IMG/VR virus record: IMGVR_UViG_3300028027_000046
Strand: one strand, 5' to 3'
Length of the DNA stretch: 64,000 nucleotides
From: an uncultured virus (IMG/VR IMGVR_UViG_3300028027_000046)
Taxonomy: Duplodnaviria > Heunggongvirae > Uroviricota > Caudoviricetes
Position numbers and translations under genes: made by a program. The notes beneath the pieces are model-generated. The model was not told where the DNA came from and ran no database searches. It saw only the letters and a program-made list of their open reading frames with translations. Below, one piece after another: positions 14,712 to 55,120 of the stretch (within the stretch, counting starts at the first letter, position 1; every line of letters begins with the position of its first letter).

Positions 14712-14948
14712 ATGGATAAAATATATCAAAAAGGCAAGACGTTTACAACCCCGGACGGAACCATTGTTACCATGTTTGATGGTAAACTTCACAATTGGGA
14801 AGGACCAGCATTAATTCCACAAGGTGATGAAAAATTGGCTGAATATTACATTAATGGGGTTAAAATGACCCATCAAGATTGGAAAAAAGCGTTACGCGGG
14901 CGTGAAGGTTTACCTTGGTATAAAGGTGGAGCTACTGTTCGGTTCTAA
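14712..14948 (+). CDS. hypothetical protein with LHxxxGPA (MORN-like) repeat
   Basis: DGKLHNWEGPALI...EYYING. Confidence 0.7.
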   Translation: MDKIYQKGKTFTTPDGTIVTMFDGKLHNWEGPALIPQGDEKLAEYYINGVKMTHQDWKKALRGREGLPWYKGGATVRF

Positions 14949-14971
14949 AAATTTAATTAAAAATAAAGGTT

Positions 14972-15424: not shown

Positions 15425-15435
15425 TATTTATAGTC

Positions 15436-20559: not shown

Positions 20560-20895
20560 ATGAAAACATCAGAACTTAAACAGTTAATTAAAGAAGCGGT
20601 ACGTGATGCTATACGTGACGAAATGAAGGATATACTTTTAGAAGCACTTAAAACACCTAAAACATCCATTCAAGAAACACAAACCACACAAACAGACTAT
20701 AAACCAACATTCACTCAACCTACATTTGATGCTAGAGAGAAATACGCTAATATATTAGGTGAAACAGCAATGAGTTTTACTAGCCGAGACATTAACCAAT
20801 TCAACCCATCTGCTGTAGGTGATCCTGTAAATGGTAACCTAGGTAACGGTGAATTAGGTATGGATCAAATTATGAATTTATTAAATGGTAAATAA
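20560..20895 (+). CDS. structural/assembly hypothetical protein
   Basis: ELKQLIKEAVRDAI leader; late motif at 20546. Confidence 0.65.
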   Translation: MKTSELKQLIKEAVRDAIRDEMKDILLEALKTPKTSIQETQTTQTDYKPTFTQPTFDAREKYANILGETAMSFTSRDINQFNPSAVGDPVNGNLGNGELGMDQIMNLLNGK

Positions 20896-33760: not shown

Positions 33761-34524
33761 GTAAAATTAAACGATCGTATAACCGCATTTTGGAAATATC
33801 CGACGATGCACAACAAATCACACTTCCCGATTCACGTTACTATCGCCGTAATGGACATTATTACCCGAGTATCACTTATGTATTAAATTCATACCCAAAA
33901 GGGCCACACTTTGAAAAATGGTTGAAACAAGTTGGATTTGCATCTGAATATATAGTTAAAAAAGCAGCGGAGGAAGGTACGCAAGTACACGAAATGGCCG
34001 AAGCATATTTAAATGGTGAAGAGTTACGTTTCCTTTCACCTACTGGACAACCACTATGCAATCCAGATGTATGGCAAATGTTGTTAAGATTTGTCGATTT
34101 TTGGGAAACACATAAACCAACACTAATTGAGGCCGAAGTACATTTATTTTCAGACGAATTGAAAGTAGCAGGTACATGCGATTTAATTATCGAATTGAAT
34201 GGTGAACGTTGGGTACTAGATTTAAAAACATCTAACCATTTACACACCACATACGATTTACAAACAGCCGTATATGCGCAATGCTACACGGAATGCTTCG
34301 AAAAACCAATAGATCGTTGTGGTGTATTGTGGTTAAAATCCAGTAAACGCAAACCAAACCCGGACAAATTACAGGGTAAAGGTTGGGAAATAGTTGAGTC
34401 AACTCGTACATTTGAGGAAAATATAGACATATTCAAAAATGTAAAACGCATATTTGACATTGAAAACCCAACACATAAACCGGCATTTACCGAATTTAGA
34501 ACAACAGTTAAACGTAAACTGTAA
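33757..34524 (+). CDS. PD-(D/E)XK exonuclease
   Basis: PSIT.VL, GTQVH, AGTCDLI, LDLKTS, LQTAVY. Confidence 0.88.
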   Translation: MSKIKRSYNRILEISDDAQQITLPDSRYYRRNGHYYPSITYVLNSYPKGPHFEKWLKQVGFASEYIVKKAAEEGTQVHEMAEAYLNGEELRFLSPTGQPLCNPDVWQMLLRFVDFWETHKPTLIEAEVHLFSDELKVAGTCDLIIELNGERWVLDLKTSNHLHTTYDLQTAVYAQCYTECFEKPIDRCGVLWLKSSKRKPNPDKLQGKGWEIVESTRTFEENIDIFKNVKRIFDIENPTHKPAFTEFRTTVKRKL

Positions 34525-34535
34525 TATGTATAGCC

Positions 34536-35291
34536 ATGATTAGTCTTGTACAATTACTTAAGGAAATACAAAATAAACCACACGCTATATTTTTAGCTGG
34601 ACCTGCTGGTAGTGGTAAGTCATATATGTCTCAACAATTAATTCCGTCATCATTGACCGTAATTAATTCGGATGACACGTATGAGGAAATGCTAAAAGCT
34701 AGTGGGTTGGGTATGAAGCAAAAAGACTTCACACCTGACCAACTATCGCAAGCAGCAAAAATGCAAGCACAGGCACGTAAAGTTACCCAAGATAAGCTAT
34801 CCCAATCCATCAAAAACATGCAAAACATAGTAATTGACGGAACAGGAGCAGCAACCAACCCAGTACTGAAGAAAAAACAGGAACTCGAGGCACTTGGATA
34901 TACAACATTAATGCTAATGATTTATGTTTCACCATTAACTTCACTTAAGCGCAATGCAGAACGTGACCGTAGCTTAATGCCTGGTATTGTGTTGCGAACA
35001 TGGCGCGATGTAAATCGCAATATAGACACATACGCGCGCGAATTTGGCGATAACTTTATATTAATAAACAACGACCCGAACGATGCAAATAAATCGTTCT
35101 CTACCACGTTACTTGAACCATATTTACTTGACCAAACCGCAACAGGTAAACCTAAAACACCGGAAGAGCAAGCAAAATCAGACGCAGACAAAGCACAGTT
35201 AAACCGTGATATAGAGCAAATGGTAAAAACATTACCAAAATTCGACACATTAGACAGTGCCAAACAAAAAATAAACACATTCATATCATGA
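34536..35291 (+). CDS. P-loop kinase (AAA_33/zeta-toxin-like) with short leader
   Basis: AGPAGSGKS, INSDD, IVIDGT, SLKRNAERDR lid. Confidence 0.85.
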   Translation: MISLVQLLKEIQNKPHAIFLAGPAGSGKSYMSQQLIPSSLTVINSDDTYEEMLKASGLGMKQKDFTPDQLSQAAKMQAQARKVTQDKLSQSIKNMQNIVIDGTGAATNPVLKKKQELEALGYTTLMLMIYVSPLTSLKRNAERDRSLMPGIVLRTWRDVNRNIDTYAREFGDNFILINNDPNDANKSFSTTLLEPYLLDQTATGKPKTPEEQAKSDADKAQLNRDIEQMVKTLPKFDTLDSAKQKINTFIS

Positions 35292-36274
35292 ACCAACTAG
35301 TACAATCCATTATTCAACCATTCACCGAAGCACAAATGAAATCAGTTGCGTTGGTTCCGGGTGGATACAAGCCACCAACATCAGGTCATTTTTACCTTGT
35401 AAACGAGATGGCTAAACGTAGCGAAATAAACGAGGTGATTGTACTAATTGGACATAAAGTACGTGATGGTATTACGGCTGAACAAAGTTTGGCGATATGG
35501 GAAATATACAAAAACCATTTACCATCAAATGTTAGCATTCGTATATCCGATGCTAATTCACCAATTCTGGACATACACAAAATAATTGGCGAAAACCCAC
35601 AAAACTTCTATTTCCCTGTGGTTGGTGTGCGTAGTGAAGCAGACCAAAACGATATTAAACGATTTGATTCACTTAGCAAAAAATACACTAACTTTAAAAC
35701 CATCGTATTGTCTGGTGACCCAGACATTAGTGGAACTAAAGCACGCCAAGCATTAATATCCGGTAACTATGAAGCATTCAAACACTATCTACCAGATGCG
35801 TTGAGTGATGCTGAAAAACAACAAGTGGTAGACATACTTAACCCACAAACCACAGTAACCGAAACAGAACAACCCACCGATTCACGCCAATTACTGTTAG
35901 GATACATCCAGTCATTAAACGAATATATGGTTAGTGAGGGAATGAACGTACAACCATTACCACGCGTAGAGATAATTGACAACGATACCAAAAACGCTAG
36001 TAATTTCTTCGGTAAAACCGCATACTACAATCCAGGTACAATCACTGTCACTTTATACACACTGGATAGACATCCAAAAGACGTGATGCGCTCTTATGCA
36101 CACGAAATGGTACATCACATCCAAAACTTGGAGGACCGTTTACCCCAAATATCCACCACTAATACAAACGAGGACGGTAAATTGGAAGAAATCGAACGCG
36201 AAGCATATGAACGCGGCAACATTACATTCCGAAAATGGACTGATTCAATTACAAACAAAAACGTGCCAAACTAA
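35288..36274 (+). CDS. HIGH-type (cytidylyltransferase-like) nucleotidyltransferase fused to a HExxH metallopeptidase-like domain
   Basis: PGGYKPPTSGHF and ISGTKAR; C-terminal YAHEMVHH...EREAY. Confidence 0.78.
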   Translation: MNQLVQSIIQPFTEAQMKSVALVPGGYKPPTSGHFYLVNEMAKRSEINEVIVLIGHKVRDGITAEQSLAIWEIYKNHLPSNVSIRISDANSPILDIHKIIGENPQNFYFPVVGVRSEADQNDIKRFDSLSKKYTNFKTIVLSGDPDISGTKARQALISGNYEAFKHYLPDALSDAEKQQVVDILNPQTTVTETEQPTDSRQLLLGYIQSLNEYMVSEGMNVQPLPRVEIIDNDTKNASNFFGKTAYYNPGTITVTLYTLDRHPKDVMRSYAHEMVHHIQNLEDRLPQISTTNTNEDGKLEEIEREAYERGNITFRKWTDSITNKNVPN

Positions 36275-36298
36275 ATCTGGGTACGTATATTCACAGTT

Positions 36299-36838
36299 AT
36301 GCAAACATTATTAGATTTATACAAGATCATTAGGGAAGAGGAACACCCAAAATACATCATATTTTGCGATATGGATGGCGTGTTAGTTGACTTCGACAAA
36401 GGATACTACCAATTAACAGGTAAACCAACCCACCACGCCGATGTACAAGTTAAGAAAGAATTTTGGCGTACATTCAATAACGCCATATCATCCCAAAACA
36501 CATCTGAATTCAAATACTGGTCTGAACTCGAGTGGATGTCGGACGGAAAACAACTGTGGAGTTACATCAAAAAATACAACCCATACATCCTAACCGCACC
36601 TACATTCAATCCAGAGTCAAAAGAAGGCAAATCGCTATGGGTCACTAAACATTTAGACAACGTACGTAAATTGTACTTCAAATCATCCTCCACCAAAGCT
36701 GACTATTCACGCAAAAACCGTATACTTATCGACGACAGAGCGACCACAATAGACGATTGGAATGCTCGTGGTGGTATAGGCATTCTACATGTAAGTACCC
36801 AAGACACAATAAAACAACTTAAACAACTCGGACTATAA
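36299..36838 (+). CDS. HAD-family 5'(3')-nucleotidase-like phosphatase
   Basis: FCDMDGVLVDF, ILTAP, GK..W, ILIDD, GGIGILH. Confidence 0.88.
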   Translation: MQTLLDLYKIIREEEHPKYIIFCDMDGVLVDFDKGYYQLTGKPTHHADVQVKKEFWRTFNNAISSQNTSEFKYWSELEWMSDGKQLWSYIKKYNPYILTAPTFNPESKEGKSLWVTKHLDNVRKLYFKSSSTKADYSRKNRILIDDRATTIDDWNARGGIGILHVSTQDTIKQLKQLGL

Positions 36839-37419
36839 TGTCAGTACTAAAAAAGCAATTCGCTGAACGTGACGTACAGCGTATCCGTAACCTAGTAAAA
36901 GGTAAAAGTGGTGAACGTACCACACACGGTATAGGTTATACTAAATCGGAAGAAGACCACGTTGAAGGTGACGTGTGGACAGAGGACGGGAAAAAATGGA
37001 CCATTCGCGACGGTATACGTGAGAACATCACCAAATTAGACAAATTCAAAAAAGTAGCTGTTCCGTTATTCTGCCCATCGTGTAAACAAGTAATGGACAA
37101 ACAACTGGATCCACACTACTACAAATCGTATGGCACGTGTTTAGACTGCCGTACTGAATTTGAAACCAAACTCAAACTGGAAGGCAAGTGGGACGACTAT
37201 GTGACCGAAGCATACAACCAAGAAATTGACGGATACATCAGCGACTACAAAGCATATATGCAAGATGCATTAGCCGAAAGTAATGAAGGATATATTACCG
37301 AAGCTGGTGACATCCAGAAATGGGTAGGCGGTATAGACAAGGACCGTGTTGCTCAATCCATGCAGGAATCAATCGAATATTTAAACAGTTTAAAACGTAA
37401 ACCAAATACCAATGAGTAA
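36838..37419 (+). CDS. zinc-finger hypothetical protein
   Basis: CPSC...CLDC. Confidence 0.7.
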   Translation: MSVLKKQFAERDVQRIRNLVKGKSGERTTHGIGYTKSEEDHVEGDVWTEDGKKWTIRDGIRENITKLDKFKKVAVPLFCPSCKQVMDKQLDPHYYKSYGTCLDCRTEFETKLKLEGKWDDYVTEAYNQEIDGYISDYKAYMQDALAESNEGYITEAGDIQKWVGGIDKDRVAQSMQESIEYLNSLKRKPNTNE

Positions 37420-37624
37420 ATTTGACGCACATAAATGGTTCAAGGCGCAGTACCTAATGGAATCACCACTTGAATTAACACTACCTGAAAAAATATATGG
37501 TCGTTTAGATTCGATACTAATGGATTTGGAAAACGTAAACGAAAACGAGGTACCATTTGATGCACAAGCATTGCGTGAACAGGTTACCCAAACATTAGCA
37601 GTACTTAAGCAAAACCGCAAATAA
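37412..37624 (+). CDS. small putative head-internal protein
   Basis: FDAHKWF...LMES leader. Confidence 0.55.
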   Translation: MSKFDAHKWFKAQYLMESPLELTLPEKIYGRLDSILMDLENVNENEVPFDAQALREQVTQTLAVLKQNRK

Positions 37625-37660
37625 CACATACTTATACATATTTATACTAAAACATATATA

Positions 37661-38164
37661 ATGAACGATAATTTTGACTTACGTAAATTTTTGGTGGAAA
37701 ATAAATCCATTGAAAATATGAACCCTGTTTTCCGCCAATTGAACGAGAACACAGAAAACACAACAACCGAAACTACAGAAACAACTGAAACTACAACTGC
37801 AATCACTGAAAATGCATTACGCGCTAAAATCCGCGAAATGGTATTAAACGAATTGGGTGGTGGTGAAAACGAATCAGAAATGATGGAGAACGAAGACGAG
37901 TTGTATGAGGCTAAAAAAGACAAAGAAGAAGAGCTACCTGCAGACGATGCTGAATTAGATCCAGACATGGCTATGGACGCAGAAATGGACGCTCCTGAAG
38001 ACGAATTAACTGCTGCTGCATCTGGTGCTACTGGTGATGCTAAAGAATTAATCAACCACTTGATGACGTCATTAGATACAGCTAAAGCAATGGGTAACGA
38101 AAAATTAACCACACAAATATTAAACACACTTAAATTCGCTATTGACCAATCAATGGCTCAGTAA
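37661..38164 (+). CDS. acidic putative prohead-core protein
   Basis: FDLRKFLVEN leader; many LxE sites; late motif. Confidence 0.6.
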   Translation: MNDNFDLRKFLVENKSIENMNPVFRQLNENTENTTTETTETTETTTAITENALRAKIREMVLNELGGGENESEMMENEDELYEAKKDKEEELPADDAELDPDMAMDAEMDAPEDELTAAASGATGDAKELINHLMTSLDTAKAMGNEKLTTQILNTLKFAIDQSMAQ

Positions 38165-38191
38165 TATATAAACAAACAAACAATAAAATCT

Positions 38192-38365
38192 ATGAACACA
38201 ACAGAAATCCTAGACGCGATAAACGCGGCTGTAGAAGTTTTAAACACAGAACACACAAAAACAACAAAAGTATCTCGCAACAGAGCACGTAGCGCAGCAA
38301 ACGACATCAAAAAATTAGCTGCTGACTTCAAACGTACATCTACTGCAGAAGACAAAGCAAACTAA
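38192..38365 (+). CDS. histone H1-like (Hc1-type) small basic protein (not in ORF track)
   Basis: KVSRNRARSAANDIKKLAADFKRTS resembles the Bacteroidota Hc1-family helix. Confidence 0.6.
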   Translation: MNTTEILDAINAAVEVLNTEHTKTTKVSRNRARSAANDIKKLAADFKRTSTAEDKAN

Positions 38366-38366
38366 A

Positions 38367-39038
38367 ATGCCATACAAACGAATCGGAAAAACTGTATACA
38401 AAAAGTTACCCAACGGAAAATTAAAATCCGTTGGTGTATCTGATTCTGTGGACTTAGCTAAAGCACATTTACGTGCACTATATGCTGCTGAAACAAATGA
38501 ATCATTAACCGAAGGCCTATCGCCCGAAGTATCCAAAAAAGCAGTAGCTATATTTAAATCCATGATTGCGGACAAACGCGATTCATTATTTAAACGATAT
38601 GGTGCTGATGCTGAGAAAGTGGCTTATGGTCACGCCATAGCAAAAGCCAAACAAATTAACGAAAAACAAACCATGCAACAAACAGACAAACTCCGTGAAA
38701 TGGTGCGAGCAGCATTATCCACACCCATGGACGAAATTAACTCAACCACATATATCAACGAACGTGAATCTGTAACCGAAGACGACTGGATGCAACCAGA
38801 CGACGAAAGCGACATGGCAAAATCCCAACTACACAATTTAATTAAAGACGCGCAACGTCTTGAATTCATGATTGCAGACGGTGAACAATTAGATGCATGG
38901 GTACAATCCAAACTAACCAAAGCACAAGACTATATTAATTCAGTACACAACTATTTAGGTGGTGAACAATCAACAAAAAAACACGTGGACATTGAATTAA
39001 CTGAGCGTATATTCAACCGCATTAAAAATCGAATGTAA
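38367..39038 (+). CDS. multi-module putative head protein
   Basis: MPYKR..KTVYKK module, KRYG..AEKVAY module, ESDMAKSQL...LDAWVQSKLT module, separated by xNE/xTE sites. Confidence 0.65.
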   Translation: MPYKRIGKTVYKKLPNGKLKSVGVSDSVDLAKAHLRALYAAETNESLTEGLSPEVSKKAVAIFKSMIADKRDSLFKRYGADAEKVAYGHAIAKAKQINEKQTMQQTDKLREMVRAALSTPMDEINSTTYINERESVTEDDWMQPDDESDMAKSQLHNLIKDAQRLEFMIADGEQLDAWVQSKLTKAQDYINSVHNYLGGEQSTKKHVDIELTERIFNRIKNRM

Positions 39039-39505
39039 TGACTAAAGATGAACTAAAAGCACGCATTCGCGAATTAGCAAAACAGGTATACAAAGCAAAA
39101 CAGCAAGATGTACTACCTGATGTTATCGAATACGATGAATTAACCAAATTCCCTGAACTTAAAGCGGTTTTGGTTGATTTATTGACTAACGAATACGACA
39201 ATTTTCTGTCATCAATTGACTGGGTTGCCCCACGTCCAACTACATTTCGCATTAATTTAAAAAACAACCAAGAATTTTACCTCATCTACGGCACACGTAG
39301 CTGGATAGCACAAATCGAAGGTAAACGCTACTATTTGGCCAACCTACCAGAAGAGGAACGCGCAGCTGAATCTATTGCTCGCATATTAAGATATGGTACT
39401 AAAGAGGAAGCAAGCGAAACCAACGACGGATTCGACAATTTCCCCGACGAAAAACCAGCAAAAGAAAAAACACCACCAACTGAACCTGAAACACCTGAAG
39501 CGTAA
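39038..39505 (+). CDS. hypothetical protein with ELKARIREL leader
   Basis: ORF track; coupled start/stop. Confidence 0.7.
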   Translation: MTKDELKARIRELAKQVYKAKQQDVLPDVIEYDELTKFPELKAVLVDLLTNEYDNFLSSIDWVAPRPTTFRINLKNNQEFYLIYGTRSWIAQIEGKRYYLANLPEEERAAESIARILRYGTKEEASETNDGFDNFPDEKPAKEKTPPTEPETPEA

Positions 39506-40488
39506 TGGACGTTATTGAAACATTTTTACATCGCATATCATATAAATTCCCTAAGGGCTACCCAGACATGAATAGCCCACAGGATGTTACGTTATTGAAC
39601 GAAATCATATCTAATTTAACTGAAGAAACACCTACATCTACTGGTGAAGACGCCAAATACGATAAATTAATTCGAGACACATTGGGTGTCAAAGAAGGAG
39701 AATCTATCCCAAAACCAAAAGGCACATATTCATTAAAAGGCGGTACATTCATGGAACAGGTAAGCCCTGGAGACATGAACGAATTCAACAAACTATACAA
39801 TACAGCACCACCTAAAGTTGGCGAAGAAGAAGGCGAAACAAAGGGTGTGGGTAATGGCGAAGTAGCATTATATTGGCTATACAAATATTCAGGAAGCGAC
39901 GTTAAAGTAGGTAGAGCTGGTGATGACCCAGATTTATTCATTAACGGTAAGGGCGTTGAGGTTAAAGCATATAAATCCCACACTGGTAAAATTGGTTTGG
40001 GACGATTTGGTACCGATAAAGACAATTTACAATTACTAAGCATCATATTTGGTATTAAATCATTGAGTGAAGCATTGGGTAGCATGGAAAAAGGCCCTGC
40101 TGTTAACCCAACCAACTTTAAAGGTACTGACCTAATACCAGCATTCGAACAAGTACTTGAACTTGAACGTATACCTGATTTAGACAGACTTGCATCACAA
40201 TACAATGTATTCGCTACTATTAAAGAAAACATAGACGCATTAAACAATACATTAAATAATCCCACCGAAGCTAAAGAAGGAGCTACGGCCATGGCTGCCA
40301 AAATGATTGAATCCAAACTAAGTAGAAAACCAGGTAACGAAAACTACTTAGCAAACGTATTGAAAAACGGCAGCATTAAATTCTTCTACATAGACTTTGA
40401 AAAATTCGAAACCAATGAAAACCTACTAGACAATTTCGCAGCAAAACAAAGCGCAATATATCTAGATTTCGGAAAAATATTTGGATAA
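39505..40488 (+). CDS. restriction-endonuclease-like PD-(D/E)XK protein
   Basis: GVGNGE...PDLFINGKGVEVK. Confidence 0.65.
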   Translation: MDVIETFLHRISYKFPKGYPDMNSPQDVTLLNEIISNLTEETPTSTGEDAKYDKLIRDTLGVKEGESIPKPKGTYSLKGGTFMEQVSPGDMNEFNKLYNTAPPKVGEEEGETKGVGNGEVALYWLYKYSGSDVKVGRAGDDPDLFINGKGVEVKAYKSHTGKIGLGRFGTDKDNLQLLSIIFGIKSLSEALGSMEKGPAVNPTNFKGTDLIPAFEQVLELERIPDLDRLASQYNVFATIKENIDALNNTLNNPTEAKEGATAMAAKMIESKLSRKPGNENYLANVLKNGSIKFFYIDFEKFETNENLLDNFAAKQSAIYLDFGKIFG

Positions 40489-40491
40489 ACC

Positions 40492-41613
40492 ATGAACAGA
40501 CTAGAAAAACTCATTCGCGAAGCACTATCCACACCACCATCCAAAGACAAATGCAATTGTGGATGCCACGACTGCGACAATGTTGGAAATCCAGGCGTAG
40601 TAATAAATGAGTCACTTAGTACACCAATAACAATGACGGAAAATCTGCGATATCACGTGGAAAATAAATTGCCACTCACAGAGAACACATTCCGTTATGG
40701 TTCAAAATCGTTCCTCGATTTATGGGCAGAGGCTCGCTACCTATACCTACGCGAAGCAATTCACGTAAACGATTTAGACAAAGAAATACTCGCTGAAACC
40801 AATTTAGGCGAATATGGTATGTTTGAAGGTAACCGTGTACCACTGGACATGCCTATGGAATATAAAAATCCATATGAACCAATACTAGAAGACATTCTGG
40901 TATATGGTAAAATATATGAATCCGTAAATATAGACAATTCATACAAACTGGACGATATTAAATCAAACGAGGTAGGGAATGAATTTATATTCACCGATAA
41001 ACACGGTATTAAACGTAAATTGTTATTTTTGTTGGGGAATAGCGTTAAACTGTTATGGTTTAACCCATCCACTCAAGAATGGACAACAGACGATATACCA
41101 CGCAAATACGAAGACGAGAAAGTAATGAACACATTTGGCATGCTGCTGGTTAAAGTAATATTACCAAAATATGGTTCATTCAATTTACAAGCGTTAAGTA
41201 TGGCTCGCTACCGTTTGTTTCGTGCATTAATATACAATAATCTAGATACATCCAAATACGAGATGGACTACGATGACGATACCAGAACAATCGATGTATA
41301 TAAAATAGAGAACATCAACGAGGCAGACAAAAAAGACCCACCAATTGGCAAACCAAAACGTGGTGGTTCAGGCGGTAAAAAATACTACGTGTATGTCCGC
41401 AACCCAAAAACTAAACGCGTTAAAAAGGTGTCATTTGGTGATGCTGGTGGACTTAAAGCCAAAATTAACAACCCAGAGGCACGTCGAGCATTCGCCAAAC
41501 GACATGATTGTGCCAATAAAAAAGACCGTACTAAAGCGTCATACTGGAGTTGTAACCTACCGAAGTATTCATCTTTGTTAGGTATAAAAAGTACTTTTAC
41601 CGGTTTTTGGTAA
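40492..41613 (+). CDS. multi-module protein with C-terminal basic domain (DUF6321-like)
   Basis: KKYYVYVRNP...KVSFGD...RRAFAKRHDC...YWSC. Confidence 0.7.
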   Translation: MNRLEKLIREALSTPPSKDKCNCGCHDCDNVGNPGVVINESLSTPITMTENLRYHVENKLPLTENTFRYGSKSFLDLWAEARYLYLREAIHVNDLDKEILAETNLGEYGMFEGNRVPLDMPMEYKNPYEPILEDILVYGKIYESVNIDNSYKLDDIKSNEVGNEFIFTDKHGIKRKLLFLLGNSVKLLWFNPSTQEWTTDDIPRKYEDEKVMNTFGMLLVKVILPKYGSFNLQALSMARYRLFRALIYNNLDTSKYEMDYDDDTRTIDVYKIENINEADKKDPPIGKPKRGGSGGKKYYVYVRNPKTKRVKKVSFGDAGGLKAKINNPEARRAFAKRHDCANKKDRTKASYWSCNLPKYSSLLGIKSTFTGFW

Positions 41614-41642
41614 ATCCAATATTTTATAATATGTATTATCGT

Positions 41643-42293
41643 ATGACAACGATAATTTATTATTTACATAGGGGGGATAAAACTCCATTTTATGTTGGAA
41701 AAACAAAAAACCACCCTAAAAAAAGAGAAAAATCTCACCAAAATAGACTAAATGATTCTACTATTATTTTAGAAATAATAGATTCTGTAGATGATTGGAG
41801 ATACTGGGAAAAACATTATATTAATTTATTTAAACATTTAGGTTATAATCTTATCAACCGAAATTCAGGAGGTGGGGGGCCAGAAATTGTTAAAGACTCT
41901 ACCAAACAAAAAATTAGTCAAGCTAACAAGGGAACCATTCACCCTATAGAAGGTAGATTATCTACTAGTAAGAAATTAACAGGTCGTAGATTGTCAAAAG
42001 AAACATGTATGAAGATATCCCAAAAGAAAAAAGGATCTACTACATCCAAAAAAGGAAAACCTGATGGACCCAAACCCGGGACCTCAGCAGCCCATAAAGG
42101 CAGGATCAGCCCCAATAAAGGTAATGGAAATTTAGTAGCTTTATATACAATAGAAGGAATATATGTAAAAACATACCCTAATTATACTTCTCTAGCTATA
42201 GACCTCAATATTAATCCCGAAACCGTAAGATGCCAATTAATAGGAAAAGCAAATACTATATGTAATAAACAATATAAAGCACAGTATGTATAA
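41643..42293 (+). mobile_element. free-standing GIY-YIG homing endonuclease (NUMOD3/NUMOD1-type tail)
   Basis: IYYL...FYVGKT, R..H, E..YI, N; STKQKIS/ETCMKIS repeats; composition differs from flanks. Confidence 0.85.
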
Positions 42294-42671
42294 ATGATGG
42301 ATAGACTACAACAACTCATACAAGAAGCACTTAAAAACAGACCAGGTCTGTGGGTAAACATTCACACTAAACGTGAACGTGGAGAAAAACCTGCACGTAA
42401 AGGCAGTAAAGCATATGCTACGGCCGTGAAAGCGGGTAAAGCAATCAACAAATTAAACGAAGAAACTACACCCAACCTACAATTCCCCGATGGTTTTCAA
42501 CCAGCAAAATCCGTCCCAAACGGTGGTGCTATGTGTGCTAATTGCGCTAAATGGAACAAATCAACACAATTGTGCGAAGGTCAATACTATATTGACTGGC
42601 ATGGAAACGGTGAAATACCAGCCAAACCAACAGAATATGTTTGTATTTGGTGGGTAGGCGAGCAAAAATAA
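42294..42671 (+). CDS. two-module protein with HiPIP-like Cys cluster
   Basis: PGLWVNIH..R module, then CANC-x8-C-x22-C-x-WW. Confidence 0.6.
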   Translation: MMDRLQQLIQEALKNRPGLWVNIHTKRERGEKPARKGSKAYATAVKAGKAINKLNEETTPNLQFPDGFQPAKSVPNGGAMCANCAKWNKSTQLCEGQYYIDWHGNGEIPAKPTEYVCIWWVGEQK

Positions 42672-42681
42672 ATCCACACAT

Positions 42682-42834
42682 ATGATTAAACTACTAGACC
42701 TGCTAAACGAAATAGTAACCGCTACACAAGTAATATGTGACAATTGTGGTCATTCATGGGATATTGTAGACGGCGGAGACGATTTATATATTTGCCATAA
42801 ATGTAATCACGACAATGCACCCGAACCACATTAA
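42682..42834 (+). CDS. 50-aa zinc-ribbon protein with IKLLDLLNE leader (not in ORF track)
   Basis: CDNCGHSW...CHKC. Confidence 0.7.
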   Translation: MIKLLDLLNEIVTATQVICDNCGHSWDIVDGGDDLYICHKCNHDNAPEPH

Positions 42835-42836
42835 AA

Positions 42837-43100
42837 ATGACCCCATACACCGACATAGAGACAACCGATACATATATTATTCGTGAATTCAACGAAAATA
42901 TAAACCCGATTGAACTAATGTGGCATATGGACAATGAATCACGCACCATCGAAATACTAGAGGACACAAATTGGCAAATTCAGTTGGACAATAACTTGCC
43001 TACCTCACTGAAAGAACATATATTTATACCTAAACACCACTATCACCGTTTAATTAAAGGTGATGGTACGTTACTACTAAAAATACATAAACATGAATAA
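42837..43100 (+). CDS. cupin-like small protein
   Basis: WHMD...IFIPKHHYHRLIKG. Confidence 0.65.
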   Translation: MTPYTDIETTDTYIIREFNENINPIELMWHMDNESRTIEILEDTNWQIQLDNNLPTSLKEHIFIPKHHYHRLIKGDGTLLLKIHKHE

Positions 43101-43776
43101 AACAGACATCCGTCGCATTATCAAAGAAGAAATATCCCGCGCCATAACTGAAAACAAACCTAAATTTAAACAAGGTGAGCATTTCAAATACATGGGTACT
43201 GATCACGAAGTAATCGACGACAATGGATTTATAGTTACAGCAATGACTAAAAATGGTAACCGAGTTAAGTTAAACCACAACCAACTTAAAGCCATTAACG
43301 AATCATATCCAACCACTAAATTACCAACACCTGGAACGTATAACGTTACATTCACTACAGAACGTAGATCGTCATTTGACGAGGTAGAACTTGACGTTAC
43401 CGAAAACGACATTGAGGATGCTCGCCGTAGAGGTAGTAATGGATATAATTTTTGGAGAGATATAATCCAGCCATACGCGCCATTCTTTACTAGTCAAGAC
43501 CGCATTAGTACAGTTGAAAAAGTAATCGAAAATAAAAAATCAACTAAATTAAACGAAGCATCCAATCCATTTTTAGATACAGAAGAAGGTGGATATATGA
43601 GAGAATATATTAATGATGTAGTTGAAGATAGTATGGGTGGACCTGAAGATTTAGATTTAGATTACCGTTCTGATTTTAATATAGCTTTTGATTTAGCACT
43701 AACTCGACTTCAACATGATCATCCTGAATTAGATTTCGATACTATTAAAGCCAATAAAGAAGCTTTTTGGCAATAA
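43093..43776 (+). CDS. multi-module putative head-internal protein
   Basis: IRRIIKEEI leader; ITE/INE/LNE module borders. Confidence 0.65.
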   Translation: MNKTDIRRIIKEEISRAITENKPKFKQGEHFKYMGTDHEVIDDNGFIVTAMTKNGNRVKLNHNQLKAINESYPTTKLPTPGTYNVTFTTERRSSFDEVELDVTENDIEDARRRGSNGYNFWRDIIQPYAPFFTSQDRISTVEKVIENKKSTKLNEASNPFLDTEEGGYMREYINDVVEDSMGGPEDLDLDYRSDFNIAFDLALTRLQHDHPELDFDTIKANKEAFWQ

Positions 43777-43786
43777 AATACATATA

Positions 43787-43870
43787 GACCGATTCATAGC
43801 CGGCCGATTTAATTAACTTATGGAAGCTGTGGCTCCTTATACGAAAGTATTTGGAGCCACCTTTTATTTT
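43787..43870 (+). ncRNA. putative pseudoknotted small RNA plus terminator
   Basis: GACCG/CGGCC stem; loop TTCATAG pairs with TTATGGA; GTGGCTCC/GGAGCCAC hairpin plus T-tract. Confidence 0.4.
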
Positions 43871-43897
43871 GCGTATATTTAAACATAAATAAAAGTT

Positions 43898-44371
43898 ATG
43901 AATATATTTTACATTGACGCTGACCCGAAACAGGCAGCACAACAACTTGCGGATTCCCATATCTGCAAAATGCAGATCGAAAGTGCACAAATGTGTAGCG
44001 TTGCCCATTGGGTAACCGGCTCAACTGCGCCATACAAACAATCCCACACCAATCACCCATCAACAAAATGGGTACGTTCATCAATCCACCACTACAGATG
44101 GACGATTCAACACGGTCTAGAGGTATGTGCTGAATTTGAAAAGCGCTACGGTAAGCGCCATAAAACACAAGATGTGCTGGAATGGTTACGCGACAATGAA
44201 CCGCGTTTACCTGACGTTGAATTCGTTGATCCTCCGCAATGTATGCCCGATCAATTCAAACAACAAGACACTATACAAGCATATCGTACATTCTATGTAC
44301 AAGATAAAGTTAAAATTAAACAATTAAAATGGAACAAACTAAACAATCAACCAACATGGATAAACGAATAG
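43898..44371 (+). CDS. pyrimidine-dimer DNA glycosylase/DenV-like family protein
   Basis: MNIFYID.DP..AA...DSHICKMQIESAQM...NHPSTKW...RYGKRH...PQCMPD...AYR.FY. Confidence 0.78.
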   Translation: MNIFYIDADPKQAAQQLADSHICKMQIESAQMCSVAHWVTGSTAPYKQSHTNHPSTKWVRSSIHHYRWTIQHGLEVCAEFEKRYGKRHKTQDVLEWLRDNEPRLPDVEFVDPPQCMPDQFKQQDTIQAYRTFYVQDKVKIKQLKWNKLNNQPTWINE

Positions 44372-45663
44372 TATACATTGGTGCAGGTGTATCCACACAG
44401 TACGCCGTATTACATCTACTTAAAAATGGGTATGATGCTACTAAAATTACCATTATTGATAAAGGAAAAGACATCCATACTCGACTACCCGAGGATGTTA
44501 TGACTGGAGCCGGTGGGTGCGGTACATGGAGTGACTTTAAGGTTATTCCATCATTCAACCAAGGAGGTATATTTTACCCACACTACTGTACTAACCAAGA
44601 ATATGCTGAACAATTATCCAAACAGCTATATGATTATATCGTAGAATACCATCCAGATGCATCTAAAATCATGTATACGGAACCAACGGATGAACCACAA
44701 TATATCAAGGATTCACCATTTGAGTTGCGTCAATCACCATGTTACCATTTAGGTACTGATTTTGGGCAACAACAAGTGAAAGCCATATTCGAGTACTTCG
44801 AGCAATGCGGTGTATATCAAATATATAATGCTGAAGTTACTAGCATAGACGCACAACACAATCGCGTTATGTTTGATACTCAATACGCTGGGGAAACTGT
44901 ACATAACTATACTGACTACGATATATTAATTGTTGGTACAGGTAAATCGGGAATGGACTTCTTGTCGGATTTAATTGAGCAATACGACTTAGACACTACA
45001 CCCAAACCAGCACAAATTGGTGTACGTTACGAAACAGACGGAAAATATTTTACCGAACTAAACAAAATAGCATACGATTTTAAACTATACAAGAAATTCG
45101 GCGACGACAGTGCCCGCTCATTCTGCACAAACAATTTCGCTGCATTCGTAGCTGAGGAAGAAACATACGGAATGAAATCATTCAACGGACACGCTCATAA
45201 AGACCCAGACAAATACAACGGCTTAACCAATTTCGGTATATTACTAGAGGCACGCGGAATCGAGGACCCATTTACATTCAGTAAACAATTAGTGGAATTC
45301 TTCCAAACCGAAGGCAAAGCAGCGTATTATTCACCTACAGACAGAACACCATCACAAACCGACCAAGGTGGATCTGTACCTGGATATAAAATTACGTTGG
45401 ATAAATTCAAGGAAGGGTTCGGTAAATATGCCGACTACATCATGGAATTTATATCCGATTTAAACACAACATTTGGTATTGACGACAACTATATATTCTA
45501 TTGCCCTGAAGTTAAATTCTTAACCAACGAAATCACCCTAAACAAACACGATTTATCGCTACCAAAATACCCAAACATACATTTGCAGGGAGATGCAGCT
45601 GGTGCTCGTGGAATATACATTTCAGCCCTACACGGAATATACATCGCAGATTCGTTAATTTAA
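44356..45663 (+). CDS. FAD-dependent oxidoreductase (COG2509-like)
   Basis: IGAG Rossmann motif, GAGGCGTWSD, IGVRYE, RSFCTN, PEVKF, GDAAGARG; start at MDKRIV. Confidence 0.88.
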   Translation: MDKRIVYIGAGVSTQYAVLHLLKNGYDATKITIIDKGKDIHTRLPEDVMTGAGGCGTWSDFKVIPSFNQGGIFYPHYCTNQEYAEQLSKQLYDYIVEYHPDASKIMYTEPTDEPQYIKDSPFELRQSPCYHLGTDFGQQQVKAIFEYFEQCGVYQIYNAEVTSIDAQHNRVMFDTQYAGETVHNYTDYDILIVGTGKSGMDFLSDLIEQYDLDTTPKPAQIGVRYETDGKYFTELNKIAYDFKLYKKFGDDSARSFCTNNFAAFVAEEETYGMKSFNGHAHKDPDKYNGLTNFGILLEARGIEDPFTFSKQLVEFFQTEGKAAYYSPTDRTPSQTDQGGSVPGYKITLDKFKEGFGKYADYIMEFISDLNTTFGIDDNYIFYCPEVKFLTNEITLNKHDLSLPKYPNIHLQGDAAGARGIYISALHGIYIADSLI

Positions 45664-45802
45664 CCATATTTATTGCCATAACCCCTCAATACTTACGTTA
45701 TGGAAAATGAATGGGAACAAGGCGATACTATCGAGTTCTAGTTAAACAGTATTTGGAGCCCCAATTGGGGCTTCATATATTCACATTAAAATAATAAGTT
45801 AT

Positions 45803-46345
45803 ATGGCTAAAATTGGTTTCACAGGAAGTGTATCTGTAGGTAAAACTACACTCGTAAACGCACTCAAACAACTACCTGAATTTGAAGGATATACATTCAC
45901 CACTGAACGCTCAAAATACTTACGTGATTTAGGTGTACCATTAAACACTGATTCGACAGTTAAGGGACAAATCATATTTGCTGCTGAACGTGCTAGTGAA
46001 TTAATGTGCCCAAACATTATTACTGACCGAACAATAATTGACGTAATAGCATTTACTGAATTATCCCGATCAATACCATTCTATCAAAAAGCAGATTTCC
46101 GCACACTAGCATATAATTTAATTTCGGAATATGACTATATATTCTATATATCACCTGATGGCGTAAACATCGAAGACAACGGTGTACGAACAATTGACCC
46201 AGTATACCGAACATCCATAGACAATGAAATTAAAAGCATATGTCGTAAACATGTAAGACAAATAAAAAACTACGCAGAATTGACGGGTTCCGTTGAGGAA
46301 AGGGTGCGCAAAGTTAAACAGACAGTATTCCCCACATATTTATAA
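45803..46345 (+). CDS. NadR-type/AAA_28 P-loop nucleoside/nucleotide kinase
   Basis: TGSVSVGKTT, TDRTIID, YDYIFY, EDNGVR. Confidence 0.82.
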   Translation: MAKIGFTGSVSVGKTTLVNALKQLPEFEGYTFTTERSKYLRDLGVPLNTDSTVKGQIIFAAERASELMCPNIITDRTIIDVIAFTELSRSIPFYQKADFRTLAYNLISEYDYIFYISPDGVNIEDNGVRTIDPVYRTSIDNEIKSICRKHVRQIKNYAELTGSVEERVRKVKQTVFPTYL

Positions 46346-46361
46346 TTAAAAATATATTCAA

Positions 46362-47342
46362 ATGAAGAAAAATTACTTAATGGAAATCATCCGCGAGGAA
46401 ATATCTAGTTACTTAGGCGAAAACGAGTCAATGTACGATTCACCACAAACACAACAGCGTGAAGTATACAGTATGTTGGATCAAGTAGAAAACTTAAAAA
46501 AGCTACGTGCTGACTTAGACGAGCAAATTGCACAATTAGAAGCTATTGCAAACACGTTTAACGTAAACGAAGATGCAGCAGCAAACAAAGCAGCAACTGA
46601 CGCTCAACGTATGGCTATTGATAAAAAAATCACCGCGTTGAATAAAACCAAACAAGAATTATCTAAACCGGGTGTTGCATTAGAAGAAGAGCAACTTGAT
46701 GAAGAAACGTTAAACGAAATGCCATTCATTGGTGGTGAGAAAGGTGCAGAATTATTCGCAGCAATTAAAACAGCATCTGAGAAATTAAAAGACAAATTCC
46801 CAGACGCAACAGCAAAAGACATTTCAAAAATCATATTAAGTAAAAAGAAACGCCCTGAACTTGCACCTGAAGTAGAGGACGCGTTAATGGCACAAGAAGA
46901 AAAATATGGTGATGACCCAAAATACACAGCTAATTTAGGTGGACCACAAACAGAAAAAGCAGTAGCTAAAGCATTGGGCGAATATGAGCCAGGACAACGT
47001 GGACGTAAAGCAACTGAAAAACCTGCAGTTGAACCAAAAGCAGCAAAAGCAAAAACAGCTCCTGCCGCTAAAGCAGAAAAATCTGCAGCCGAACCAACTA
47101 CCACTACTACTGAACCAGTAGACAAAGAAGACGCAGCAGCATTAAAAGCAGCAGCAAACGTTAAAGGTGGTGCATTAACAGCTGGTGAAAAATACGGTAA
47201 GTTAAAAGCATCGTTGGACACTAAAACAGCTGAACTTAAAGCATTGGCTGGTTCAACTGACATGGAAAAACGTAAAGCATTAACCGCTGAAAAAATGCGT
47301 ATTGAGGCTGCAATTGAAAAATTGAAACAAGTAAAAATGTAA
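46362..47342 (+). CDS. putative head-internal/core protein
   Basis: LMEIIREEI leader; A/K-rich tail; late motif. Confidence 0.6.
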   Translation: MKKNYLMEIIREEISSYLGENESMYDSPQTQQREVYSMLDQVENLKKLRADLDEQIAQLEAIANTFNVNEDAAANKAATDAQRMAIDKKITALNKTKQELSKPGVALEEEQLDEETLNEMPFIGGEKGAELFAAIKTASEKLKDKFPDATAKDISKIILSKKKRPELAPEVEDALMAQEEKYGDDPKYTANLGGPQTEKAVAKALGEYEPGQRGRKATEKPAVEPKAAKAKTAPAAKAEKSAAEPTTTTTEPVDKEDAAALKAAANVKGGALTAGEKYGKLKASLDTKTAELKALAGSTDMEKRKALTAEKMRIEAAIEKLKQVKM

Positions 47343-48055: not shown

Positions 48056-49636
48056 ATGCAAGACAATAAAAGTTTACGCCAAATAATAAAGGAGGAATAT
48101 ATCAAATGTGCATCGAGTCCTGCATATTTCATGAAGAAATATTGCTATATCCAGCACCCAAAACGCGGACGTATACAATTCCAACTATACCCATTCCAGG
48201 AAAAGGTACTTACCCTATTCCAAGAAAATCCATACTCAATTGTACTTAAATCAAGACAGTTAGGTATATCTACCCTAGCATCTGGATACTCAGTATGGTT
48301 AATGCTATTCCATCAAGACAAAAATATACTTTGTATTGCCACTAAACAGGACACTGCAAAGAACATCGTAACCAAGGTGAAATTCATGTACGACAATTTA
48401 CCTACCTGGCTACGCGAAAAAGACAAACCCATTGAGGACAATAAACTTACATTACGTCTTAACAACGGTTCACAAATTAAAGCAACCTCTGCATCATCCG
48501 ATGCTGGTCGATCCGAAGCAGTATCTTTGCTGCTAATTGACGAGGCTGCATTCATTAACAACATCGGCGAGATATGGGCATCAGCTCAACAAACCTTAGC
48601 AACTGGTGGGGGCTGCATCGCATTATCCACTCCATACGGTACAGGTAATTGGTTCCATCAAACATGGTTAGGCGCTGAAATGGGTGACAATTCATTCCTA
48701 CCCATCAAATTACCGTGGAGTGTTCACCCTGAACGAGACCAGTCATGGCGCGATAGACAAGATGCGGATTTAGGTCCACGAATGGCGGCACAGGAATGTG
48801 ATTGCGATTTCTCCACATCCGGTGACACTGTATTCACACCTGAGGACTTAGAGTTTTATTCCAAAACATATATCCGCGAACCACTAGAAAAACGTGGTGT
48901 CGACCAAAACCTGTGGATATGGGAACCAGCTGACTATTCCCGTAACTACATGGTAGCAGCTGACGTTGCCCGTGGTGATGGTAAGGATTTCTCCACATTC
49001 CATATATTTGACGTTGAAACATTCAAACAAGTGGGTGAATATAGAGGTCAGTTAACCACAACTGAATTCGGACATTTACTAGTTGGTATAGCAACCGAAT
49101 ACAACAATGCATTACTAGCTGTAGAGAACGCATCCATTGGTTGGTCAACCATCCAAACCATAATTGATCGTGGATATCCAAATTTATACTACACACCAAA
49201 GGGATCTGCAGTTAATTCATATTTCGACCCAGTAATGGATACAAGTAAAATGGTTGCTGGATTTAATTTAAATCAACAGAATCGCCCAGTAGCCATAGGA
49301 AAGTTCCAAGAAGCTATGAGGGAACGAAGTGCTGTCGTATATTCATCTAGGTTATTTGAGGAAATGAAGGTATTCGTTTGGAAAAATGGCCGCGCTGAGG
49401 CACAAACCGGATACAACGATGACCTAGTAATGGCATTTTCAATTGGTTGTTATTTAAGAGACACATCATTTAAAATGCGACAACAAGGAATGGACATGTC
49501 CCGAAGCATATTAAACAGCATAAACACAACCACAAACCCATATGCAGGTGGATACATGAACGGTTCAAACCAAAACCAATTTAGTATACCAAACCCATAC
49601 GGAAACGGTAGCGAGGACATATCCTGGCTACTTTAA
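48056..49636 (+). CDS. terL: terminase large subunit (T4 gp17-like)
   Basis: KSRQLGIST, LLLIDEAAF, STPYG, ADVARG, NDDLVMA. Confidence 0.96.
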   Translation: MQDNKSLRQIIKEEYIKCASSPAYFMKKYCYIQHPKRGRIQFQLYPFQEKVLTLFQENPYSIVLKSRQLGISTLASGYSVWLMLFHQDKNILCIATKQDTAKNIVTKVKFMYDNLPTWLREKDKPIEDNKLTLRLNNGSQIKATSASSDAGRSEAVSLLLIDEAAFINNIGEIWASAQQTLATGGGCIALSTPYGTGNWFHQTWLGAEMGDNSFLPIKLPWSVHPERDQSWRDRQDADLGPRMAAQECDCDFSTSGDTVFTPEDLEFYSKTYIREPLEKRGVDQNLWIWEPADYSRNYMVAADVARGDGKDFSTFHIFDVETFKQVGEYRGQLTTTEFGHLLVGIATEYNNALLAVENASIGWSTIQTIIDRGYPNLYYTPKGSAVNSYFDPVMDTSKMVAGFNLNQQNRPVAIGKFQEAMRERSAVVYSSRLFEEMKVFVWKNGRAEAQTGYNDDLVMAFSIGCYLRDTSFKMRQQGMDMSRSILNSINTTTNPYAGGYMNGSNQNQFSIPNPYGNGSEDISWLL

Positions 49637-54487: not shown

Positions 54488-55120
54488 ATGAACAAACAAT
54501 TATTAATTGAAACACGATACTTTAACCCATCACCTGTCCGTCTAGTAGAAGGGCAGGGAAATGGTGGTAATGTATTTGTAGAAGGTATATTAGCAACCGT
54601 TGAAGTAAAAAACGGAAACGGTCGTTATTACCCACGCGAGTTATGGGAACGTGAAATTGATAAATTCTCACAAAAAATCAACCAACGCTCAACTGAAACA
54701 TGTGGTGAATTAGACCACCCAGATTCACAAATCATTAACCTCCAAAATTCATCTCACGCCATACGTAAAATTTGGTGGGATGGTGATAAAATCATGGGAT
54801 TAATAGAGATATTCTCGGACATGGGTGAAAAAGGAACAAACGCAGGTCGTATAGCTGGAGCATTAGTTAAAAACGGACTGAATATTGGTGTATCATCTCG
54901 CGGCATGGGTTCACTTAAACAAGTAGGTGAAATCATGGAAGTACAAAACGACTTTGAACTATTGACATGGGACATAGTATCTAACCCATCCAACCCTAAC
55001 TCATGGATGACCCCAACATCACTAAATGAATCCAGAACTACTACACTGGATTCATATAACAAAGTTAATTCATTAATTACCGAAATAATGTGTGCTAAAG
55101 GCACATGCCCTATATTTTAA
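54488..55120 (+). CDS. prohead protease (T4 gp21-like)
   Basis: NGNGRYYP, GELDHP, GVSSRGMGSL, WDIVSNPS. Confidence 0.95.
   Translation: MNKQLLIETRYFNPSPVRLVEGQGNGGNVFVEGILATVEVKNGNGRYYPRELWEREIDKFSQKINQRSTETCGELDHPDSQIINLQNSSHAIRKIWWDGDKIMGLIEIFSDMGEKGTNAGRIAGALVKNGLNIGVSSRGMGSLKQVGEIMEVQNDFELLTWDIVSNPSNPNSWMTPTSLNESRTTTLDSYNKVNSLITEIMCAKGTCPIF

Follow-up and report, generated by a model that had tools for sequence, protein, structure and literature searches.

In bacteriophage T4, the protease gp21 cleaves proteins after L/I-x-E, the 10 residues at the start of internal protein III (IPIII) are enough for packaging, and in the T4 capsid targeting sequence (CTS) residues 4 and 7 mainly serve targeting and residues 8 and 10 processing, according to the part of a published account that deals with these proteins (PMC9026906). 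The entries in the T4 record begin MKTYQEFIAE/A for both IPII and IPIII, MKTFKEFTSTTTPVSTITE/A for IPI, MAKINELLRE/S for gp24, MLKEQLIAE/A for gp22, and MNEPQLLIET for gp21 (here and below, a slash follows the Glu of a site). In the giant phages phiKZ, 201phi2-1, and SPN3US, many head-internal proteins are cut after Glu by a diverged gp21 homologue and have multi-site propeptides, and their cargo was found by mass spectrometry; the part of the same account that treats them speaks of a "short sequence motif" before the Glu and describes no shared short N-terminal address (PMC9026906). Here, we analyzed a 64,000-nucleotide stretch of DNA from an uncultured virus (IMG/VR record IMGVR_UViG_3300028027_000046; hereafter, the window), for which the original prediction, made from the letters alone, had proposed a modular capsid-cargo system, that is, unrelated enzymes that share a short amphipathic N-terminal leader and are carried into the head. 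We found that the leader motif is real, lies at the N-terminus, and is modular, and the phage probably packs a large, changeable set of proteins into its capsid.

The window comes from a distant T4-like myophage, as judged by Pfam and PHROGs, of Flavobacterium-type hosts; 96 open reading frames (ORFs) were called, and all credible genes lie on the + strand. Its nearest cultured relative is Flavobacterium phage vB_FspM_immuto (160 kb; host Flavobacterium sp. LMO8; hereafter, immuto), whose capsid protein is 60% identical to that of the window, followed by a Microcystis phage, uncultured giant phages, and Rhodothermus phage RM378. Three sequence sets were used: the window, the whole of immuto (228 ORFs), and 80 related viral contigs found with the large terminase subunit (TerL) as the query (781 ORFs). 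Genes of the window are named below by their start positions.

We defined a strict pattern, [LIVMF]xx[LIVMF][LIVMF][KRQNTV]E, starting within the first 13 residues. It was present in 12 of the 96 window ORFs, against 1.17 ± 1.08 when residues 2–19 were shuffled (2000 shuffles; largest 6), and its density in the window was 15.5-fold higher at N-terminal than at internal positions (12/1248 vs 11/17705). Because the strict pattern was post hoc, we also ran a pattern-free word count over six residue classes, in which "hydrophobic-hydrophobic-basic-acidic" came out on top of 82 tested four-letter words (13 occurrences within the first 20 residues vs 25 internal in the window, p = 7.8e-7). For the related contigs, we set the word-enrichment test aside, as repeated orthologues such as TerL dominate it.

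The carriers are clustered: eight of the 12 fall within the 21 ORFs of the 34.5–47.4 kb block (34536, 36299, 37661, 40492, 42294, 42682, 43093, and 46362; hypergeometric p = 4.3e-4). All ten N-termini quoted in the original prediction are present in the sequence, and these eight fit the strict pattern; the other two are 39038, whose leader is weak, and 39505, whose motif lies at residues 30–40. Four strict carriers, namely 20560 in the baseplate cluster, 5354 and 7090 in the early region, and TerL (48056), were missing from its list. The block is also rich in the word [LIVMF]NE, with 20 occurrences against 4.9 ± 2.2 by shuffle (500 shuffles; largest 11), whereas the head region of the window showed a mild excess (13 vs 6.4) and the tail genes none (7 vs 6.1). 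In immuto, the excess was confined to the block (13 vs 6.3).

The same motif recurs in the relatives. In immuto, 16 of 228 ORFs carry it, eight of them among the 22 ORFs directly upstream of TerL (p = 1.6e-5), and in the 80 related contigs it was found in 65 of 781 ORFs, compared with 8.0 ± 2.9 by shuffle. Within these contigs, it occurred in 43 of 395 ORFs upstream of TerL but in only 8 of 295 downstream, four of the latter being the protease itself. Conversely, no ORF of two Flavobacteriia phages that are not T4-like carried it (Flavobacterium phage 11b, 0/68; the first 50 kb of Cellulophaga phage phi38:1, 0/94; total, 0/162), and the motif is therefore a trait of this lineage rather than a general feature of A+T-rich phages of the host group. 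A tblastn search of 50,697 phage records with the first 35 residues of 37661 matched only immuto phages, at an E of about 9, the query being too short.

The claim that the leader is shared by unrelated proteins was borne out by clustering. When the first 25 residues were removed from 1105 proteins (window, immuto, and contigs) and the bodies were clustered, 73 leaders sat on 39 body families, with TerL and the protease left out. The leader consensus is MKK(S/T)xL(K/R)x(I/L)(I/L)(K/R)E(E/A)(I/L)..AL(N)E, and among 72 distinct leaders the motif Glu is residue 12 in 36, residue 10 in 14, and residue 10–13 in 60. In the leader logo, P7 is L/I/V/F/M (Leu in 58/72) and P4 is I/L/F/V, the hydrophobicity of both following from the construction of the pattern; Ile, Leu, or Val occupies P3 in 71 of 72 leaders, with Glu at P1, making an (L/I)-x-E site at which cleavage is predicted from the sequence. 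The cleavage motif of the giant phages, S/A/G-x-E, has no hydrophobic P3. The region upstream of TerL turns over fast, its 395 ORFs falling into 109 families (77 singletons), compared with 40 families for the 295 ORFs downstream.

The four fixed positions of the motif (i, i+3, i+4, and i+6) have the spacing of T4 CTS residues 4, 7, 8, and 10, as these are given in the part of the account cited above, and the predicted likeness to T4 thus holds at the level of architecture: CTS and gp24 propeptide share these four positions with the leader, and an S77 protease co-occurs. The T4 register itself is reproduced in three carriers, 34536 (MISLVQLLKE; L4, L7, L8, and E10), 40492 (MNRLEKLIRE), and 42682 (MIKLLDLLNE). 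Like the CTS of IPI, IPII, and IPIII and the propeptides of gp24 and Alt, the leaders are N-terminal, 10–20 residues long, and hydrophobic at the equivalents of positions 4, 7, and 8, with a Glu at that of 10; as in T4, they sit on unrelated, fast-changing bodies in a genome that encodes an S77 protease. They differ in frequency (about 12% of ORFs here, about sevenfold commoner than the 5/273 of T4) and in position, the Glu being mostly residue 12 here, often with a second ..ALNE eight residues on. Moreover, the bodies here include folded enzymes and a nuclease-like protein, the hosts belong to the Bacteroidota group, and packaging and cutting are predictions here.

In T4, the strict pattern was found in 5 of 273 ORFs (1.8%), namely those for gp24, Alt, gp2, gp61.1, and DNA ligase. 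The T4 record annotates gp24, Alt, and gp2 as virion proteins, and the pattern is fairly specific for head proteins there, but rare. The CTS of IPII and IPIII, with Y4 and F7, fits only if Tyr is allowed at the first position. A looser pattern that allowed this Tyr and any residue before the Glu was dropped: it had 23 matches in T4, mostly in non-head proteins, compared with 9.6 by shuffle. Separately, the T4 hypothetical protein gp61.1 (54 residues; NC_000866 18966–19130, minus strand) begins MKTFKEFIKE, closely resembling the start of IPI (MKTFKEF...) and the CTS of IPII and IPIII, and this stretch ends I-K-E; gp61.1 may be an unrecognised head-targeted protein.

In the head cluster, the match of the S77 prohead protease 54488 to PF03420 reached 95.9 bits (cut-off 27) over profile positions 42–197 of 198. 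Its N-terminus, MNKQLLIET, resembles that of T4 gp21, and its C-terminal part contains NSLITE/IMCAK. The scaffold begins MATNRDMLAE/A, resembling T4 gp22, and has two internal DL.ELL.E sites, and the major capsid protein begins MSTINELLES, resembling T4 gp24. The LLIE and INELLE starts described for the protease and capsid protein were thus found as stated, and the likeness of all three N-termini to gp21, gp22, and gp24 suggests that the cutting rule is conserved. Between portal and protease, proteins sharing the motif E(E/I)STTGGG.G..F.PG.G.QYATP.AF occur in the window (52447–52908; TSATSQGGASFSPGAG), in contig L062 (14378–15601), and in the head clusters of contigs L075, L076, and L078, and they probably belong to the prohead core. 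Some relatives have this motif joined to the domain of 38367.

A late-type promoter motif, ATATTTATA, gives a further view of the carriers. It has 14 sites in the window between 13949 and 61982, against an expectation of 5.4 ± 2.0 for both strands together, and every one is on the + strand. Most of the sites stand 14–25 nucleotides upstream of the ATG in genes for baseplate, head, and neck proteins, for PhoH, and for a homing endonuclease. We read it as a candidate late promoter that would mark late genes, because it is found before head, neck, and baseplate genes; it recalls the T4 late motif TATAAATA. The carriers 37661 (site 37638–37646), 46362 (site 46336–46344), and 20560 have it 14–25 nucleotides upstream, and 43093 has it 65 nucleotides upstream (43020–43028). 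The expectation that several leader genes follow the late motif is therefore correct for these, which are 3–4 of the 12 carriers. When all sequences are taken together, 25 of 78 leader ORFs have it upstream, compared with 150 of 915 others, and in the three leader families adjoining TerL it precedes 24/24, 13/18, and 3/3 members.

The best single case is 46362, which lies just upstream of TerL. Its residues 1–119 have an isoelectric point (pI) of 4.5, and the remainder is basic (pI 9.3). In an alignment of 17 family members, the only invariant columns were M1, K2, L6, E8, I9, R11, E12, and E13 in the leader, E119 at the junction, and K161 and G183; in three members, the leader runs directly into LNE/IPDFGG. 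The leader was found in 17 of 18 members and the late-type motif in 13 of 18. From its sequence, 46362 is the best candidate for an internal head protein, and it looks like a clipped propeptide on a DNA-associated protein. A complex prediction for the scaffold with residues 1–40 of 46362 scored 0.00 in both runs, without controls, and weighs neither way.

Several other carriers retain the leader in their relatives. The orthologue of 42682 in contig L008 and those of 43093 in contigs L008 and L016 keep it, as does the immuto orthologue of 20560; homologues of 5354 in immuto and contig L015 sit in the block upstream of TerL. A leader of the 37661 type, M.NFDL+KFLVENK, is also found on four otherwise unrelated immuto proteins. 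Among eight aligned orthologues of 40492, the leader is present in five, degenerate in one, and absent in two, which start at the Cys cluster. Side by side with this, the C-terminus of 40492 (window 41320–41613) is a basic domain, KPKRGG..KKYYVYV...VSFG....AKI..P.AR.AF..RH.C....D..KA.YWSC.LP, common to 27 proteins with varied N-terminal parts (phrog_7595). The NT5C-type enzyme 36299 begins with an 18-residue extension, MQTLLDLYKIIREEEHPK, PF06941 starting at residue 19 (profile position 2); all 120 homologues listed keep an extension of 13–26 residues, most of which read MPNLLDLYE/AIKPKY. A PDB sequence search with this protein gave no match.

Hydrophobic-Asn-Glu sites also occur between domains. 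The two-domain protein 35288, which the original prediction had counted as cargo, lacks a strict leader (N-terminus MNQLVQSIIQPFTE), and that assignment was overstated; it has two [LIVMF]NE sites in its N-terminal half and a third (SLNE/Y, residue 210) ahead of the C-terminal half, and residues 206–325 match residues 577–696 of a 907-residue immuto protein annotated NadR. The domain of 38367 is present in a head-cluster gene of contig L062 (ORF 14378–15601, between a portal-adjacent gene and the protease; BLASTP E 1e-7). Immuto has its versions of 38367 and 39038 fused in a single protein of 841 residues, in which seven (L/M/V)NE sites separate the domains and the helix of 39038 is internal, as SELKEIMLE/A at a domain junction (residue 677). 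In 46 metagenomic homologues of about 470 residues, the leader MSLNILKNLIKE is followed by a 39038-like domain, an acidic linker, and the body of 39505, and the N-terminal motif is present in 44 of these 46 long forms.

Protein 39505 itself has a 40-residue two-helix leader ending LLNE33 / NLTE40, and the quoted LLNEIISNLTE thus stands at residues 30–40 rather than at the extreme N-terminus. Homologues of about 330 residues share the two-helix N-terminus, with the motif at residues 31–37 in 49 of 69; in the long forms described above, this N-terminus has been exchanged for the leader, 39038-like domain, and linker. In an AlphaFold2 model (predicted local distance difference test score, 84.3), helices span residues 3–10 and 25–39, residues 40–46, directly after LTE40, are disordered, and the body begins at 47. 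Regarding the nuclease label, an alignment of 30 sequences shows no variation at P142, D143, E152, and K154. Fold matches by VIA-align were modest (MspI, Z 5.9, root-mean-square deviation 5.5 over 163 residues; HinP1I, 5.4; I-Ssp6803I, 5.0; trust is advised at a Z of about 8), Foldseek returned nothing at E <= 0.001 with the model, and Pfam gave no match. The PD-(D/E)XK label is plausible but not secure, because the invariant PD...ExK is accompanied by modest Z scores and no significant Foldseek match.

Table 1. Genes of the leader block, head cluster, and other regions discussed in the text (positions in the window).
Feature	Position	Strand	Basis
Gene with leader RMQMLAGIITE, early-region protein	5354..6025	+	strict motif
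111-residue helical protein with MKTSELKQLIKE, just upstream of gp25-like baseplate gene, behind ATATTTATA	20560..20895	+	
gp25- and gp6-like baseplate genes	20895-23133	+	Pfam, PHROGs
Primase	32831	+	Pfam, PHROGs
PD-(D/E)XK exonuclease	33757	+	Pfam, PHROGs
Zeta-toxin/AAA_33-type P-loop kinase, N-terminus MISLVQLLKE	34536..35291	+	Pfam PF06414 E 3.1e-12; strict motif
Two-domain protein: cytidylyl/adenylyl-transferase-like N-half, HExxH (HEMVHH) C-half	35288..36274	+	phrog_3041 cytidyltransferase E 4.9e-11
NT5C/HAD 5'(3')-deoxyribonucleotidase	36299..36838	+	PF06941; phrog_2643
Very acidic (pI 4.1) low-complexity protein, leader MNDNFDLRKFLVE	37661..38164	+	strict motif; ATATTTATA upstream
Protein with ~60-residue "D.W.Q.K.TKA.DY" domain, without strict leader	38367..39038	+	BLASTP
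Small domain protein, weak leader MTKDELKARIRE (ELKARIRE; Arg at hydrophobic position)	39038..39505	+	
Restriction-endonuclease-like (PD-(D/E)XK-type) protein (label plausible)	39505..40488	+	conserved residues; AlphaFold2 model
Leader MNRLEKLIRE (register 4, 7, 8, 10), CxCGCHxC knuckle, conserved middle and basic C-terminal domain (KPKRGG...YWSC)	40492..41613	+	phrog_7595
Basic 125-residue protein, leader MMDRLQQLIQE, C-terminal Cys cluster	42294..42671	+	strict motif
50-residue zinc ribbon, leader MIKLLDLLNE (register 4, 7, 8, 10)	42682..42834	+	strict motif
Acidic 227-residue protein, leader MNKTDIRRIIKEE	43093..43776	+	strict motif; ATATTTATA upstream
Leader MKKNYLMEIIREE, acidic variable segment, LNE119 junction, basic Ala/Lys-rich body	46362..47342	+	ATATTTATA upstream
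Terminase large subunit (TerL), helix LRQIIKEE	48056..49636	+	Pfam, PHROGs
gp20-type portal	49658	+	Pfam, PHROGs
S77 (T4 gp21-type) prohead protease	54488..55120	+	PF03420 E 2.9e-27; phrog_207 E 9.5e-51
Acidic scaffold (pI 4.05), gp22 position	55322..56350	+	
gp23-type major capsid protein	56371..58038	+	PF07068 E 4.4e-71

Other features of the window lie apart from the leaders. In the early region (1–15000), the G+C content of the first ~14 kb is 0.27–0.29, compared with about 0.37, and there are ~40 small ORFs; a near-identical element of ~20 nucleotides, TAAATTTAAAAATAAAGGTT, abuts the ATG of most of them and looks like a repeated early promoter or translation-start cassette. The same region contains a tRNA-Arg (anticodon TCG; 8918–9001), the sole Rfam match in the window. 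Four genes are of homing-endonuclease type (14972–15424, 32363–32803, 41607–42293, and 58204–59907): one SegE-like GIY-YIG, two GIY-YIG, and one T5orf172. One of the two GIY-YIG genes has NUMOD3, and the other has NUMOD1 and a long C-terminal part matching HNH/homing-endonuclease PHROGs; one of the four lies between the capsid gene and PhoH and one within the leader block. A 1683-residue protein of the tail/baseplate cluster (24628–29679) had no match in Pfam or PHROGs, and over its first ~600 residues it shares 39% identity with an immuto protein of 1265 residues.

How the leader might work can be proposed by analogy with T4. The amphipathic N-terminal helix of 10–20 residues would bind the prohead core during head building, its two outer hydrophobic residues serving targeting as T4 CTS positions 4 and 7 do. 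The inner hydrophobic residue and the Glu would make up the (L/I)-x-E site; by cutting directly after it, the S77 protease 54488 would free the body inside the head. Multi-domain precursors could be cut by the same protease at the extra hydrophobic-Asn-Glu sites that lie between their domains. Core binding, cleavage, presence in the virion, and injection of the leader proteins are what we infer from the genes. The proposition that the leader is a T4-type CTS and propeptide multiplied in this phage lineage is, in our judgment, the best explanation, at about even odds. A broader version is possible but doubtful: a lineage-wide address system would mark ~1 gene in 10, in at least 39 unrelated families, for loading into the prohead, clipping by the S77 protease, and injection with the DNA. 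Its families would include the P-loop kinase, the dNMP (deoxynucleoside monophosphate) phosphatase, the restriction-endonuclease-like protein, zinc ribbons, and a histone-like basic protein, and fusion, fission, and leader swapping at hydrophobic-x-Glu junctions would reshuffle the payload quickly, so that it would be hypervariable and far larger than that of T4. Among the papers listed by a literature search, we found no earlier description of capsid targeting sequences for this lineage, although such a search is not proof of absence.

A number of observations weigh against reading the leaders as capsid addresses. Both the strict pattern and the [LIVMF]NE word were defined post hoc, on data already inspected. 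The residue following the motif Glu is often Glu, Ile, or Val, rather than the Ala/Ser/Thr of T4 sites, and in T4 itself the match of Alt needs an ATG one codon upstream of the annotated start, at which MELITE offers just the hydrophobic-hydrophobic-x-E core. Regarding location, 20560 sits in the baseplate cluster and both 5354 and 7090 in the early region, and 8–9 of the 12 carriers lack their own late-type promoter. Regarding the enzymes, residues 4–146 of the kinase 34536 align with residues 23–161 of zeta toxin (1gvn). Its leader, which has the strict motif in the T4 register, is doubtful because its first ten residues align with the native N-terminal stretch of the toxin, and it may be a native helix. 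dNMP phosphatase-type enzymes such as 36299 have obvious cytoplasmic roles, and of the 120 NT5C homologues listed, which all keep the extension, only 28 fit the strict motif. The conserved enzymes 45803 and 44329 in the same block have no leader. A literature search yielded no virion proteomics, N-terminal sequences, or expression data for this phage or a relative, and nothing usable on virion proteomics of immuto, Mel-JY01, RM378, or T4-like propeptides.

TerL belongs among these points, because its fit to the strict motif means that the likeness can arise in a protein not expected inside the head. We rejected it as a true cargo: among 74 related TerL proteins, 60 lack the motif Glu and only 14 have it, the consensus being DLKQIIRQEY, and we judged the helix a look-alike and did not count TerL as a carrier. 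Its N-terminus (window 48056–48110; contigs L007–L086) is a conserved amphipathic helix, DLKQIIRQEYLKC, with the hydrophobic spacing of the leader. Taken together, the capsid-cargo reading is plausible, and it was overstated for the enzymes, given the TerL look-alike, the kinase helix, the leaderless 35288, 45803, and 44329, and the late-type promoter on only 3–4 of the 12 carriers. The case for cargo would be strongest for 46362, followed by 37661, 43093, 40492, 42294, 42682, and 39505, and weakest for the kinase.

Alternatively, the leader could be a general docking or oligomerisation peptide with no part in the capsid, recruiting its bearers to a cytoplasmic hub (a replication/nucleotide-metabolism complex or a host target) and resembling the CTS by convergence. 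Such a peptide would suit the carriers that are nucleotide-metabolism enzymes (the kinase and the dNMP phosphatase), the conserved helix of TerL, the position of 20560 in the baseplate cluster, and the alignment of the kinase helix with a native zeta-toxin segment, and retention of the NT5C extension in every listed homologue is as expected of a structural element. However, docking does not explain the invariant Glu with a hydrophobic residue two before it and the LNE junction in the otherwise hypervariable 46362 family, nor the [LIVMF]NE enrichment in the block, nor the same type of N-terminus on the protease, scaffold, and capsid protein of the lineage. The late-type promoters and TerL-adjacent position of the most conserved leader families, and the loss of the leader in some orthologues, are likewise left unexplained, and we consider this alternative unlikely.

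It is quite improbable, in our view, that the leaders are the propeptides of assembly proteins only, in which case the carriers would be core- or scaffold-like factors that are degraded and expelled, delivering no cargo. T4 offers a precedent, since its core proteins gp22, gp67, and gp68 are cut to fragments that mostly leave the head, as described in part of the same account (PMC9026906), and here 37661 and residues 1–119 of 46362 are acidic and of low complexity like the scaffold, while 38367 shares its domain with a head-cluster gene. On the other hand, a scaffold role is unlikely for folded bodies, among them the dNMP phosphatase and the restriction-endonuclease-like protein as well as the zinc ribbon and the basic body of 46362, and the fast gene turnover upstream of TerL fits accessory cargo better than essential assembly parts.

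Finally, that the leader is a functionless by-product of DNA or translation (5' recombination cassettes or A+T-rich codons after the start) is very hard to credit even though the block is hypervariable, leader codons are fairly conserved within the 46362 family, and T4 internal-protein loci are said to exchange via conserved flanks, since a composition-keeping shuffle of residues 2–19 gives 1.2 carriers instead of 12, no carrier occurs in two A+T-rich Flavobacteriia phages, the leaders of different families have a residue pattern in common but not the residues, synonymous codons vary at L7, I9, I10, R11, and I14 within that one family, and in immuto the motif is also found within a protein, where two domains meet.

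For the reading of the leader as a multiplied T4-type CTS and propeptide, the mechanism itself is already known from T4, and the expansion seen here would be a broader use of it. If it is true, the proteins that these abundant aquatic phages bring into the cell ahead of gene expression could be recognised by a simple rule on their sequence, and it is among such proteins that functions in first-strike counter-defence and host takeover are to be expected. Injection of the enzymes for anti-defence or for takeover of the host is a conjecture, a further and weaker step than the reading of the leader. The leader would also serve as a short, portable tag with which foreign proteins could be packed into Bacteroidota phage capsids, and the T4 internal-protein system would be one small example of a widespread, expandable mechanism.

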